64,000 bases of DNA from Curvularia clavata (taxonomy: Eukaryota): contig CP089278.1 in assembly GCA_023920165.1 (NCBI GenBank), positions 1,674,001 to 1,738,000 on the forward strand. The letters are read 5' to 3'. The position numbers were made by a program, and so were the translations under genes. Of the stretch, positions 52,403-57,227 are shown one piece after another. Position 1 is the first letter of the stretch. Every line of letters begins with the position of its first letter. A model generated the notes under the pieces. That model ran no database searches. It was not told the DNA's origin and saw only the letters and a list, made by a program, of their open reading frames with translations.

Positions 52403-54245
52403 GACTGTCTGCCGTGGTGAGAGACAATGGCCTCGTCCTCCTGCTCCTACTAATCACTACAATGTCTTCTTCCAACAAGTACTTTGTCCATAGCCTGGGG
52501 CCCAGCGAAGTTTCGCGTGGCTTGTCGCGGGGCAAGAGGCTGTTTGCAGGTGAGGTGGAGCAGTGACGGTTGACGGGCTGGCGGCTATCGGCTGGCGGCA
52601 GGGTCTGGTCGATCCGGCATAGCACCAAACTGATCGCCCCGCCGCGGCTGCAGCCATCTGGCAACTACACACATACATGGCACGGGGGTCAAGTCATGGA
52701 ATGAGGCAATGTTTCCAGAAGGAACCGGGAGACTTGTCTCTGTTGGACACTTTGTTTTGGCAGGGCACTCTGGGCGTGCCAAGGGGGGAGTCAATTGACA
52801 TGAAGCCTTGTCAGGAGAGCAGATTCACACGGCAACACGGGTCAAAAGAGCAGAGTGCAAGAAGCAATGGTCCAGCCCCCCTTGGTGGGTGGGACAGAGT
52901 AATGACGAGGGTGGTGGCGGGTCGAGGCAAAGAAGCAAGGCGAACGGATGGTGCAGCATGTTCCAAAAGAAACAAGGAGGACTCGCATAAGCAAAGCTCA
53001 CACTTGCTATGTATAGAGAAGGGAGGGTGGGGTTATGCAAAAGCATGGCACTGGATGGGCAATGGCCACGTGGATAGGGCAGTATAGTAGAGAGAGGTCG
53101 AGAAGTTCTAGAAGCCCCTGATGGGCGAAACGAGCGTCACGGGAGGTCAGACTGGCGAGGCATGAGCAGGAATAGCATAGCATAAGGCGCGGGCAGCGGG
53201 CGAGGCAGTAGTGCTGCCAAGAGGGCCAATTCTGGGGCTGGAGATGCGTCGCGTCAAAATAATAAACACAAGGCGTGTCGCGAGCCAATTGATTGCGGCG
53301 TGTTTGTGAGCTATTCTTGCTGTGTGGGTGAGGCTAGCGGCCCCTGAGGGCAATGTTACAGCACGAGGACAAGTTGTGTCAGGCAGAATGGCGGCCTTCA
53401 GCCAGCCCTGGCAGGGCGGGCAGGGCAGGGCACACGACTACCAGTCACACAGGGTTTCGCCCGTAATGACGGCAAAAGGGATGAAACCTTGGCCGAGTGG
53501 TCGACGGAAGGTTTCAAGATGGGTTCCGCAGCACATGGCACGGCCGCCCACCACTATGACGACCCTCGACACCACGCACCCACACGCCGCCTGCTCGTAA
53601 AGGGCAGGCACACACACACACAGTGAGTGCTGTCCGGTACCTGCATGCGCTCGTCAGGGCGGGCCGACCAATGCGGCCATGGCGTGGGCTGGGGCGCTTT
53701 GGTGCGAGGGCTGGCCAGAACGTGACAACGCATTGCACGCCCGTCCGAGACGCGGCGACGCGCTGGCCCGATGACGGCATTATCAGCAGTCAAAGTGTGC
53801 AAAGGACGGCGGCAGAAAGGCGCGTCGCCAGCCGTGGCGGTGGCGGACGGTGGCCGAGTGGCCGTGCTTTGTGCTGGCAAAGAGTGAAGCAACAGGCAGG
53901 CGGCTTATGTTATCCGCGCACGGCCCGCCGGGGACTTTTTTGTCGACGACGCTTTGAGACGCCGGGAGCTGAGGCAGCCCGCCCATTGGCCGTTTCACAC
54001 GACAGAGTGGGGGCGCCAGCTGTGTCCTGTTGCATCCCCTTTCCCATTGTCTGCCCAAGAGTCATCCCAGAGAAGCAATGTGCAATTGCTTCACTCCGCG
54101 CGAGCACTGCTCCAGGCGTGCGCCGAAAAGGGCCACGTACCTGCGAGCTGCCCGTATGGCCCGTCCGTTGCCCCGTGGATGATGCATCATCGCGCAGACG
54201 TCAGTCCATGGTGATGCTGGGCTGGAGGACCATGACTTCTGCGAG

Positions 54246-54258
54246 TTAAATATATATC
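54246..54258 (+). promoter_or_regulatory. TATA-like element upstream of the small-ORF transcription unit
   Basis: TTAAATATATAT is an isolated AT island in GC-rich DNA, followed by a CT/CA-rich leader and the ATG at 54455. Confidence 0.45.
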
Positions 54259-54454
54259 TGCCAACCATCGGGCCACTGTCGCAACTACTGACACTCCCGC
54301 TGCACCGCTGCACTACAAACTTCAAAGACGGTCCTCTGCCAACCTTAACCCAGTCTCAGACATAGTCTCGCCGCTCCCCATTCATAAGCTCCCAGCCCCG
54401 ATCCGGACACTACCATCAAACACATACTACTACATTACACACACGACCGCCAAC

Positions 54455-54617
54455 ATGATCTTCTCCGCCATGAACAAGCCCAAGATGCCCGATGGCAGTG
54501 GCCCCCCAGGCGACGGTGGCAGTACGTTCAGCCCCGACACCCTCTCCTCTCCCTCAAGTTCCCAGTTGCTGACATGCTCCTGCCTCAGGAAAACCAATTC
54601 CCCATTGGGAAAAATGA
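54455..54617 (+). CDS. Putative spliced 31-aa micropeptide MIFSAMNKPKMPDGSGPPGDGGRKPIPHWEK
   Basis: ATG in caacATG context after a CA-rich leader. Canonical intron 54522-54588 (GTACGT...GCTGAC...CAG). PPGDGG resembles the PQPRDGG motif downstream. Confidence 0.5.
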
Positions 54618-55659
54618 ATGGATGGCTGCGCCATCTCGACCAATCAACACCCCCAATGCCTCTGCGTCTGCCCTGGCGGCCCACCATCACCAACATACGT
54701 CTCGTCTCCAAAACCGACTTTGCTTTCTCGCTCATCGCCATCACCACCATGCTCGCTTTTGCGCTTTGCACAGCATTGCGCTAGCTCGCCGAGTCCTGTG
54801 TGGTCGACAGCGAGAAATGGTCCTCCGGGGCGCAGCACTCAGTCGCCCAATGCGGAAAGCGCTGCTCTGCGCGGCTGTGTCAGACCCGGTGACCGAAGCA
54901 ACCGAAGCAGCAGTCCTCCCCCCAAAAAAACCCCCTCGCCCTCTCCCTCAAGGCATTCTGGACGACGCTCTCGCGGGGGCTATCCGCTACTTATCAACCA
55001 CCGGGGCCAAATCGCCAGGCTGCCTCGAGTCTGCCGTACCTGGCTCGCGCTTGGTGGCTTATGGGTTGCGGCTGTGCAGCACTGGGTCCGCGCCTGGCAC
55101 TAGCCCTAGGCAGCGAACGCTGATTTACCCTTCACCCATTCACCGGAGCGCACCTGACGCCCTTCTGCCTGAAAGTACTGCCTTAGCACTCGATGCGCAT
55201 TCACCTGCCGGGGGGCTTTGCGCAGCACTCCCGGTCGACTAAACCAGTCACCCTCGGTGTGACTGTCTTCTCAGCCTTCTAGAAGGACGCTACTTGGCAG
55301 TGCAGCCTGGCGGTCGCCTTGTTCGTCAGGGCACGCCCAATCAGCTCCCTGATTATGGCCCCAAGGGGCGCAGTCCATTGTCCTTTGCCAGTGTCTTTGA
55401 ATCACACGGGGCAGAATTCCATCTGGTCCTCTGCGTCACAGCCTGGAAGAAGGCAGTCATCGCCTGTTCTTGGAGGCTGGCCGTTTTATGACAGGCCTCA
55501 GGATTTGCGAGGTTATATCTCTTGAATTTCTCTCTGCTGTATACTATTACTACTACACATCACTACAATACAAACATCAATTACATCTACCATCTTCATA
55601 CAAGCCATACTCATCTACCAAGTCTGAACACACACATCACACTCCACTACTCCACCACC

Positions 55660-55812
55660 ATGAGACTAGCCATGACATGTCTTACTCTCTCCTACGGCGA
55701 CCCGCAGCCCCGTGACGGAGGAGCGCCGCATCCAGGTGCTCGACTGAGACAATCTTCCACCATGATGCTCTCCATGGCCGGCGATGGACCTCAGCCTCGC
55801 GATGGAGGCTAA
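55660..55812 (+). CDS. Putative 50-aa micropeptide with two GD(G)PQPRDGG repeats
   Basis: accaccATG start after a CA-rich leader. The two PQPRDGG copies differ at 5 third-codon positions, all synonymous. Confidence 0.6.
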   Translation: MRLAMTCLTLSYGDPQPRDGGAPHPGARLRQSSTMMLSMAGDGPQPRDGG

Positions 55813-57227
55813 TGGACCCTGAGCCACATCTACTTTTCGGTCCGTTCAGCTCTCTCTTTTCTCCACCAACATGTCCTAACATGGCGCAGTTCACATCGCC
55901 AGTCCATCCATTGACTGCATGATCCGACTCGTCAACAGGACCGGATCACCACCAGGGCTTGTTCACCACCAACTCGTACACGCCCATGTACCACCACCAT
56001 TGCTCCGTCTTCTTCTTGTTTGAGCATTTCGTCATACCATCCTGCAGCGTTCTAAAACATCTTCGGCGTCTGGTTTTCCTTGTTGTGTGTCTTTTTGGGG
56101 TGGGGAGAAACATGAGGCCCAAGTGCGTACATTTGGTGACTTTTTGGGACAGTCTCTTTTGGGATGCATAGACGGCGTTATCATAGAAGGCGTGGAGCTA
56201 CCTATTATTGGGATCTAGGGCCAGACTGACAGGCAGTCTGATGAAGTTACGGGGGTTTTTCTTTTCTATATTGTACGATTATGAGGTTTGAGCGAATCAT
56301 CCAAGATAGCATGCGTTGCCGCTAGAATAGAGTAATGGAAGGACATGCTGGTTACAAACGTGCTGCTGATTCACGTGACATGGGGATTGCGAGTCCTGAA
56401 AAGAGGCAATACTGCTCATCCCAAGGATTGCAGGTACAATGGCAGCTGTGGAGTGTGCGAGGTTGGAGGGGAGAAGTCGAAGTTGTCGCACGCCGCCCTC
56501 GTCCCCCACGCTGCCGCCTACGGTCTTGGCACAGATAACGATATTACACGCAACTTGCATGCATCCCCCATGCCTGCTTGCGTCACACAGTGGGATGCGA
56601 AGGAGGCATATACGTGCTGTCATATCGCTCTCTGAACCCTAATGACCACCGACATCTCCCTGCTACAAAAATAGAGCCCTCGTCCTATATATACAACATC
56701 TAGTCTACAGATGCATCGCATTTGCTTGTAAAAATATACATGCTTCCCCGCTCGGGTCTGTATGTACGTAGACCCTGTTGCTATTAAAAATTTAGTCACA
56801 GAAACCCCCAAAAAGACTCTGGCACGCGCGCGTAGCACACACCCAAGCATGGGAGACAAACTCCGCTGGTCAGAAGGCAGAACGTGCCACCCGTCGCTGA
56901 GAGCAAACCGTCTGGGCACGTCATGCCCAGGCGCCCCCGGTTTAGGGCATTGGTGCCCGTAGTGGTTAAAGAACAGACGGTTCTGCTGGGCGCGACCTAG
57001 GCTCTCTACCCACCAAGAATCTACGCCTAGTTTGACCTTGTTTGCGACAGAAGCCAAGGTCGGGGTTTTCCTTGCGATATAAGAACGTGGTTTGGTGGGC
57101 TGCTTTTGCATCTCGTCGCTTGGGTCCTTTGTTGCTTCCCGTTTTCACCTACACAAATCGCTGCCCCTCGCGACCGCGACAACGCTTTGCGACACTTGCG
57201 CTCTACAAGACTGCTCTGTACCTGAAA

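Follow-up and report, generated by a model that had tools for sequence, protein, structure and literature searches.

Among the described systems, the arthropod gene tal/pri/mille-pattes (PMC1852585) comes closest to the locus reported here. Its peptides are very short, nothing but a repeated short motif is conserved in them, they have been kept for a long time and were overlooked by annotation, and additional motif copies arose by duplication. These features are shared by a pair of small genes, A and B, found in the 64,000-nucleotide (nt) stretch of Curvularia clavata DNA analysed here (contig CP089278.1, positions 1,674,001–1,738,000; called the window, with positions counted from its first letter). 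The pair lies on the plus strand in a gap of 4.8 kb, a size correctly given in the initial annotation, between the start codon of a divergent RCY1-like gene (ATG at 52402) and that of a DUF3602 gene (ATG at 57228). The strictly kept element is QPR[D/E/C]GG, with PRDG as its core, present once in A and twice in B, whereas the tal/pri motif is LDPTGXY. The architecture differs as well. The open reading frames (ORFs) of tal/pri are 40–200 bp apart on one reinitiating message, whereas A and B are about 1 kb apart, with introns and, in our reading, promoters of their own; B repeats the motif inside one ORF, and the locus is fungal, not animal. The PRDGG locus probably works like tal/pri as a motif-only micropeptide locus and would add fungi to the organisms with motif-based micropeptides; in the literature searched, such peptides are well studied in animals and plants only. 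No match to the PRDGG family was present in that literature, most subscription journals and supplements being outside its coverage, and the pair apparently represents real, conserved and undescribed fungal micropeptide genes.

We propose that A and B are two tandem, related micropeptide genes with their own promoters, positioned between the RCY1-like gene and DUF3602 across the Pleosporales, and that their products would be disordered peptides docking through the motif. The probability of this reading as a whole is roughly 0.5. That both are real translated genes is close to certain: they are ORFs of fewer than 100 codons, under purifying selection and represented in spliced RNA, the general marks of a micropeptide (small ORF, smORF) gene.

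Gene B (55660–55812, 50 amino acids) carries its first motif within DPQPRDGGAP, at residues 14–23, and the second, QPRDGG, at the very C-terminus, followed by TAA. A search with the single sequence gave two matches among four candidates, a three-row profile 19 matches in 1.84 billion representatives, and a 24-row profile 31 matches among 8000 scored. Two or more motifs and a PR[D/C]GG end were found in 29 of the 32 distinct matches, with a motif spacing of 24–32 residues (15 and 24 in one fused model). Two of the remaining three had the first motif only, and one (P0043) had no motif and was rejected as a false member. The A3 profile also matched translated leader sequence of over-long gene models. 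The length of B is 47–53 residues across the family, whose named members belong to Alternaria, Pyrenophora, Clathrospora, Plenodomus, Parastagonospora, Coniothyrium, Delitschia, Amniculicola and Zopfia. With the exception of Zopfia, placed in Dothideomycetes incertae sedis in the NCBI taxonomy, the named members are Pleosporales, an order with many plant-associated and industrial fungi; Delitschia, Amniculicola and Parastagonospora represent three of its families. All are annotated only as 'hypothetical protein', often with a wrong N-terminus. At least five families share the locus with strict conservation of its motif, stop, intron and promoter, and annotation has missed or mis-modelled it. 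A divergent branch (P0013, P0015, P0016, P0017 and P0033, including Delitschia) ends in QPRCGG and not in QPRDGG, and in Parastagonospora motif 1 reads QPREGG and the C-terminus carries a third Gly. Two Pyrenophora tritici-repentis models (P0026 and P0042) join exon 1 of A to B in a three-motif protein. Such a joint was seen in none of the four RNA runs described below, and the matching acceptor in the window would give an immediate stop; both models are probably prediction artefacts, although a rare real isoform may exist.

A metagenome scan with a DNA pattern for motif 1 gave 47 loci (a first scan with B alone had given 598 pattern matches, none confirmed). In 23 of the 47, a second motif was followed at once by TAA, a feature absent from the scan pattern, and these are the B orthologues. 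One further locus (L076) is cut off by the contig end, and the other 23, which showed neither a second motif nor a match to RCY1 or DUF3602, were dropped as chance. The 23 orthologous loci are not independent, several being near-identical, and 12 non-redundant ones were used; the conservation of motif 1 follows from the way they were selected, which does not apply to motif 2, the stop, the intron, the promoter or the synteny. RCY1 was found upstream in 10 loci and DUF3602 downstream in 12. L037 and L044 had no DUF3602 match within 7 kb downstream; A and B are kept in both, and RCY1 in L044. The peptide pair stays beside RCY1 when the right-hand neighbour changes.

The ratio of nonsynonymous to synonymous differences per site (pN/pS) of B, calculated on 13 sequences, was 0.44 in frame; the two shifted frames gave 1.08 and 1.54, and the antisense strand 1.01. 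For A, the four closest loci gave 0.48 in frame versus 1.83, 1.38 and 1.25 in the controls (0.59 on nine loci, including one row, L047, with a wrong intron). Motif codons change freely at synonymous sites: all four Pro codons are used, as are several Arg and Gly codons. The A and B frames are under purifying selection at the amino-acid level. Because the amino acids are conserved while synonymous changes are free, the three PxDGG units of the initial annotation, lying at 54506, 55708 and 55795 and the only ones in the six frames of the window, are more than a chance occurrence. A protein search of the organism's own genome (32.4 Mb, eight contigs) revealed no B paralogue elsewhere. The PRDGG codon pattern was found there at 54 places, against 84 for a reversed control, with no third copy among the 30 inspected; two of the 24 places not inspected are B itself. 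A search of this genome with an A orthologue as query gave no match, not even A itself, and is uninformative.

Gene A (54455–54617, 31 amino acids) is defined by RNA-confirmed splicing and by its orthologues. Coding exon 1 (54455–54521), whose start codon has an A at position −3, encodes Met, a basic KPK segment and PGDGG. It is followed by a 67-nt intron (54522–54588, GTACGT...CTGAC...CAG) and by exon 2 (54589–54617), which ends with TGA and encodes a tail of variable size, 1–15 residues in relatives. The joint 54521>54589 was present in three of the four RNA runs (X4, X1 and X14), and the TGA at 54615 closes the ORF only after splicing. The intron lies 4–10 nt behind the PxDG word in all 11 loci examined. 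Each of the 10 non-redundant relatives whose upstream DNA reaches far enough contains A, as 25–38 codons located 965–1200 nt before B; starts in the relatives were chosen by eye, and all splice sites outside the window's species are predictions. These relatives share the basic K/R-P-K/x segment and the word P/T-R/G/L-D-G, and the motif, PRDGG in some of them, drifts between PGDGG, PLDGG, PRDGQ, PRDGC and PRDGY. The core common to A and B is PRDG(G), and by its sequence A is a paralogue of B. No database entry was found for A on its own, its only occurrence being in the two fused Pyrenophora models.

When the intron of A is retained, the frame remains open for 109 codons in the window (54455–54784) and for 122–180 codons in L042, L052 and L074 (introns of 55–67 nt, all 1 mod 3); it is closed in the other relatives. 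Contig breaks at the intron ends may indicate that both spliced and retained forms exist. The frame A2 (54614–54784), which shares an ATGA overlap with the A stop and corresponds to the frame of intron-retaining A, was rejected as coding, with a pN/pS of 0.73 in frame and 0.86, 0.89 and 0.76 in the controls. It is open in three close relatives, broken in L061 and L076, and absent in L044 and L047.

The RNA evidence comes from four runs (X1, X4, X14 and X19) of 24 listed, in the form of assembled contigs that carry no strand, end or level information, and the statements made here hold among the contig pieces listed (24 further pieces exist). The contigs derive from RNA, since the exons of both the RCY1-like gene and DUF3602 are spliced together in them. 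Contig joints show that both A and B are transcribed and spliced on the plus strand, so that the region is a transcribed one as first supposed. No RNA cover was seen at 53413–54014 in any of the four runs. Contigs over A start at 54222, 54245 and 54253, at or just before a TATA-like element; contig ends are not transcription start sites. In X14, a separate contig block covers 55568–56293 and positions 55219–55519 are uncovered; X19 shows low cover over B, ending at 56303. The gap at 55219–55519 in X14 and X19 is an absence at low depth, a weak hint. The stretch 54589–56453 is spanned by a single contig in X4, and in X1 two overlapping contigs extend to 56454. Cover in these runs, from two studies, is gapless, and A may have a long transcript that continues through B. 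B was joined to DUF3602 by no contig in the four runs, and the region is therefore not the 5′ leader of DUF3602. With its ORFs conserved, it is also more than an extended promoter of that gene, the outcome that the initial annotation had named as fatal to its proposal.

Downstream of B, a 50-nt intron is located in the 3′ untranslated region (55840–55889, plus strand), 27 nt after the stop. It was joined only in X14 and was unspliced in X1, X4 and X19. In all 23 orthologous loci a donor is found 17–24 nt after the stop, together with branch-site and acceptor words. The intron is nearly constant in position (17–27 nt after the stop) and in length, 46–53 nt in most loci, and the donor in the window is the non-consensus GTCCGT. 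The 3′ end region of B, recognised by its T/G-rich composition (56070–56300), is possibly shared with read-through transcripts of A. Contigs end near this tract at 56293 (X14) and 56303 (X19), and further on at 56453 and 56454 (X4 and X1).

The upstream promoter of A (53900–54243, plus) contains CCAAT (53985, minus), GAGTCA, GGGCCACG, GCCCCGTG and ACGTCA words and has 56–64% mean identity to seven orthologues, among the highest values in the spacer. The TATA-like element that follows (54244–54257), previously noticed and with TATATA at 54251, is kept in L042, L052, L074, L061 and L076 and is weaker in L044 and L047. The 1.8 kb of GC-rich promoter-like DNA described in this part of the gap holds for about 53400–54200 (GC 0.62–0.66); the remainder is not GC-rich, and about 0.9 kb of it (to 53271/53295) is covered by RCY1-side RNA contigs. 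The two CA-rich leaders are present at 54425 and 55548. They are 74% alike over 23 nt, a value equalled by many pairs in the region, the word they have in common is not conserved among orthologues, and they are therefore best seen as ordinary CA-rich 5′ leader.

The promoter of B (55020–55520, plus) contains 11 AGGC/GCCT sites, GTGGCT, GCGGCTGTG and GGCGCA words, a CCAAT at 55337 and a TATA-like TTATAT at 55513, 55 nt before the start of the X14 contig. Identity to the seven relatives peaks at 53905–54300 and 55105–55505. With its own TATA-like element and promoter and the separate X14 block, it is very probable that B is driven independently, and two separate small genes, mentioned initially as the alternative, is the better reading. 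A heat-shock-element-like TTCTAGAA is located at 55277–55284 in the B promoter and is kept in five of seven relatives; a similar GAAGGCGTCTAGAA word occurs in the A upstream region of four relatives and is lost in the window (53810–53825).

In 12 related loci, AGGCA was the top 5-mer relative to shuffles (66 seen, 21.5 expected). The 860-nt A–B spacer contains 17 AGGC, a number reached by none of 147 window tiles (mean 8.3), 7 AGGCA (reached by 2 of 147 tiles) and 4 GGC[A/T]GTG (1 of 147). The whole 5-kb alignment has 12 AGGC/GCCT sites that five or more of the seven relatives retain, and 11 of them fall at 55022–55498. AGGCA is the target site of SltA/Ace1 (PMC4985261; PMC4557415), with stronger SltA dependence when more sites are present (bioRxiv 2020.04.16.044396), and CAC[AT]GCC, GAGGCTG and GNGGC(G/T)CA are Crz1-type sites (PMC2873923). 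The B promoter displays the same clustered, conserved AGGCA and GGC[A/T]GTG sites as these regulons, with 7 AGGCA in 860 nt compared to five in 1.15 kb in sltB. It differs in that the available parts of these descriptions (PMC4985261, PMC4557415, bioRxiv 2020.04.16.044396, PMC2873923) mention no micropeptide target, and the B sites are candidates only. From the site pattern, SltA/Crz1-type control of B stands at even odds. The end of B itself (55804–55812) reads GNGGCT, a Crz1-like word overlapping the stop.

The product of B has no family-wide hydrophobic leader or signal peptide (N-terminal hydropathy −1.0 to 2.0, with the motif at about residue 15; assessed by simple window hydropathy, not by a dedicated predictor). 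The AlphaFold2 model of B shows no secondary structure, with a mean predicted local distance difference test score (pLDDT) of 63 and a predicted template modelling score (pTM) of 0.12, although the reading as disorder is weak because short peptides often fold poorly. Pfam gave no match for B, P0005, P0010 or P0015 (E ≤ 1), nor for the unspliced A frame. Among Protein Data Bank (PDB) sequences a single match (E 0.13) was judged to be chance, and the ESM Atlas returned no usable match for B. Because no common leader and no structure are seen, and only the motif, its duplication and the GG end are kept, A and B are read as disordered peptides that are made in the cytosol, remain within the cell and carry a short linear motif. 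The PRDGG motif would dock in trans on a protein pocket, most plausibly one reading Arg-Gly-Gly ends; action in trans through the motif appears to be the likelier mode, though well short of secure. The pocket might belong to a receptor of the ubiquitin system or to a protease, titrated or inhibited by the peptides. This first guess is drawn from the resemblance of the C-terminal Arg-x-Gly-Gly of B to the ends read by KLHDC proteins. With its two motif copies, B would be the bivalent form; zinc-finger factors of the SltA/Ace1 and Crz1 types would switch it on under cation, alkali or calcium stress, and A would answer to another input. If so, the SltA/Crz1 stress pathways may have a new output in this locus, whose motif and promoter, small and sharply delimited, are open to direct testing. 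A role of QPR-DGG as pseudo-substrate for the SltB protease was rejected as unsupported, SltB not having been located in the organism's own genome in a search where the controls were also without match.

The Gly-Gly C-degrons read by the Kelch proteins KLHDC1/2/3 (PMC11568203) have, like B, a free C-terminal Gly-Gly and an Arg two to six residues from the end. The motif of A and the first motif of B differ from them in being internal. A free GG end therefore cannot account for everything, since the A motif is looser and in most cases lies away from the C-terminus. Ubiquitin-like modifiers and sulfur carriers also terminate in Gly-Gly, on a beta-grasp fold of 70–100 residues. B shares the C-terminal Gly-Gly (29 of 32 matches and 23 of 23 complete loci) and A does not; a modifier of this kind was rejected given the 47–53 residues of B and the absence of a beta-grasp or other predicted fold and of a Pfam or PDB match. 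The fungal dehydrin-like DPR proteins (AbDhn1-3, DprA-C; PMC3788798) are disordered and stress-linked, as the PRDGG peptides may be, and are likewise built on a repeated Pro-Arg motif with little else in common. They are 157–964 residues long with DPR domains, whereas the PRDGG peptides have 25–53 residues and no Pfam match. The DPR tripeptide occurs in only 4 of the 32 B matches, DPQPR being the usual form, and in the absence of the repeated DPR signature this assignment was rejected too.

Several points weigh against the proposed reading. The peptides are known here from sequence, RNA contigs and a structure model, and the partner is hypothetical. Besides the looser motif of A, the fixed final codon of B (GGC in 22 of 23 loci, with TAA always next, while the preceding Gly uses all four codons) may point to an additional constraint on the DNA or RNA itself. 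In X1 and X4 the RNA is unbroken across the B promoter, and a separate start of B rests on X14, the weak X19 and conservation. Concerning regulation, GNGGCK by itself shows no enrichment (22 of 147 tiles). The promoter words were initially spotted by eye and the orthologues are not independent, words of four or five letters suit several zinc-finger factors, and the poor alignment on the RCY1 side lowers the count of conserved sites there. The search for SltA and SltB in the organism's own genome gave no match, and neither did its controls.

The RNA cover leaves room for an explanation compatible with the proposal of two genes, in which the two promoters form a switch. The A transcript, having no strong end of its own, would run through the B promoter to the shared T/G-rich 3′ end; this long RNA would be translated only for A and would repress B by transcriptional interference, and the short B RNA would be made when B's own factors win. 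The arrangement resembles long undecoded transcript isoform (LUTI) loci such as NDC80-luti (PMC5655139), with tandem distal and proximal promoters, many intervening ATGs and RNA across the proximal promoter in some samples. It differs in that the upstream ORF is a conserved paralogue of the downstream peptide and that the case is known from strandless contigs alone. The gapless contigs of two studies over 54589–56453, with 53413–54014 uncovered and X14 in two blocks, fit this scheme, and the 6–16 ATGs between A and B would block B on the long RNA. The spacer is conserved in blocks along its length, and its peak T content is below that found after the B stop in 9 of 10 loci, although the difference is small. 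The same cover would however be produced by overlapping separate RNAs, as the contigs lack strand and ends, or by antisense RNA starting near 56454, only 130–180 nt from the DUF3602 contigs; the B intron is moreover unspliced in X1 and X4, precisely the gapless runs. We regard the switch as possible, with the balance of the evidence leaning away from it. Its broader version, an order-wide micropeptide switch in which paralogous PRDGG peptides, one of them with a ubiquitin-like Arg-x-Gly-Gly tail, alternate from tandem promoters as dedicated ligands of a receptor of the ubiquitin or protease system, is doubtful; here A read-through would silence B, and cation/calcium-stress factors would turn B on. 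If true, the switch would represent a regulator of the tal/pri class of motif micropeptides in fungi, combined with a transcription-interference toggle between paralogues.

Returning to the two-gene proposal with action in trans, the exactness of the B terminus raises the question of action in cis. PRDGG, rich in Pro, Asp and Gly, is slow to translate. A ribosome might stall on it during elongation or at the stop codon, depending on a metabolite or on eIF5A activity, and the motif would thereby set the fate of its own RNA. The exact GG-stop of B, the GGC-TAA of 22 of 23 loci and the intron fixed 17–27 nt downstream are in agreement with this, as are the otherwise poorly kept peptides and the stop of A 1–2 residues past the motif in L040, L047 and possibly L044. 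There is no conserved downstream main ORF for such a stall to control (A2 fails the coding test and the frames after B are not conserved), B RNA is not joined to DUF3602, the first B motif is internal and the A tail has 8–9 residues in most loci. Cis action is unlikely on these grounds.

A lower standing is given to the idea that A and B are precursors of processed peptides, such as cores of ribosomally synthesized and post-translationally modified peptides (RiPPs) or pheromone-like signals, cut around the Pro/Arg-containing motif. A repeated conserved core in a variable carrier would suit such a precursor, and Pro flanks the first B motif and many A motifs on both sides; the second Pro is missing after the last B motif and in three A orthologues. 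Secreted precursors processed by Kex2 (pheromones, dikaritin RiPPs) have a signal peptide and dibasic sites around their repeats. This class was rejected: no signal peptide is seen, and a dibasic pair between 16 residues before the last-but-one motif and the end occurs in only 3 of the 29 two-motif matches. The neighbours, RCY1-like and DUF3602, are not tailoring enzymes or transporters, and processing of this type is very improbable.

Placed slightly lower is the tal/pri-like polycistron favoured in the initial annotation, in which A, B and further frames would be translated by termination-reinitiation at TGA-ATG and TAATG. Both junctions do exist (TGAATG at 54615 and TAATG at 55810), a repeated short motif is found in separate small ORFs, and the expectation of several ORFs on one mRNA is compatible with the gapless cover of X1 and X4; X14 shows two blocks, and all of these contigs are strandless. 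The TGA-ATG after A was seen in the window only, in none of eight relatives (one row having a wrong intron call). The TAATG after B is present in 4 of 23 loci from a single lineage, where it opens frames of 6 to more than 70 codons unlike that of the window, and the frame after it was rejected as coding. The ATGA overlap at the A stop, shared by the window and five of eight relatives, speaks for coupling but is a by-product of Lys/Glu-TGA. In 11 loci the distance from the A stop to the B start is 965–1200 nt, with 6–16 ATGs in between; the B promoter is conserved, and A2 has no coding signal. Translation by reinitiation hardly fits this locus. Finally, chance ORFs, lying in an RNA without coding function or in regulatory DNA that serves RCY1 or DUF3602, could be suspected because DNA conservation in the non-coding spacer equals that in the ORFs and no database entry was found for A on its own; they can practically be dismissed given an in-frame pN/pS well below that of the other frames, the synonymous change in motif codons and the conserved start, length and stop.

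The neighbouring genes lie outside the peptide locus. On the left, the first exon and the long 5′ leader side of the RCY1-like gene extend over 52291–53295 (minus). Its product matches Pfam Sec10_HB at 49860–52196 (E 8e-122), and its introns at 49812–49863 and 52238–52290 are joined in RNA contigs; the name RCY1 is our assumption from the F-box plus Sec10 layout. RNA on this side reaches about 0.9 kb upstream of the ATG (52403–53295, minus), and in X1 the contig is continuous with the exons. The same interval contains at least six minus-strand ATG frames of 29–73 codons, forming a long leader with possible upstream ORFs. On the right, the DUF3602 gene (57228–57732, plus; Pfam DUF3602) forms a separate RNA block with a joined intron at 57285–57393 and contigs starting at 56586–57164. 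In X1 and X4 these contigs start 590–640 nt before the ATG and leave a gap of 130–180 nt to the contigs covering B. Short conserved blocks occur at 56501–56617 and 56792–56829 in the RCY1-distal part (56454–57227), between the B contigs and DUF3602; this part could be a two-way promoter producing antisense RNA over B. DUF3602 contains three GRGG(A/Q)(G/A)N repeats that loosely resemble RDGGAP(N/H) of B, and the resemblance to these GRGGAGN-type repeats is limited to the first B motif. No Rfam match was obtained across 52400–57300. A perfect 15-nt inverted repeat links the first RCY1 exon (52348–52362) and the ACGTCA word of the A promoter (54193–54207) and is probably due to chance.

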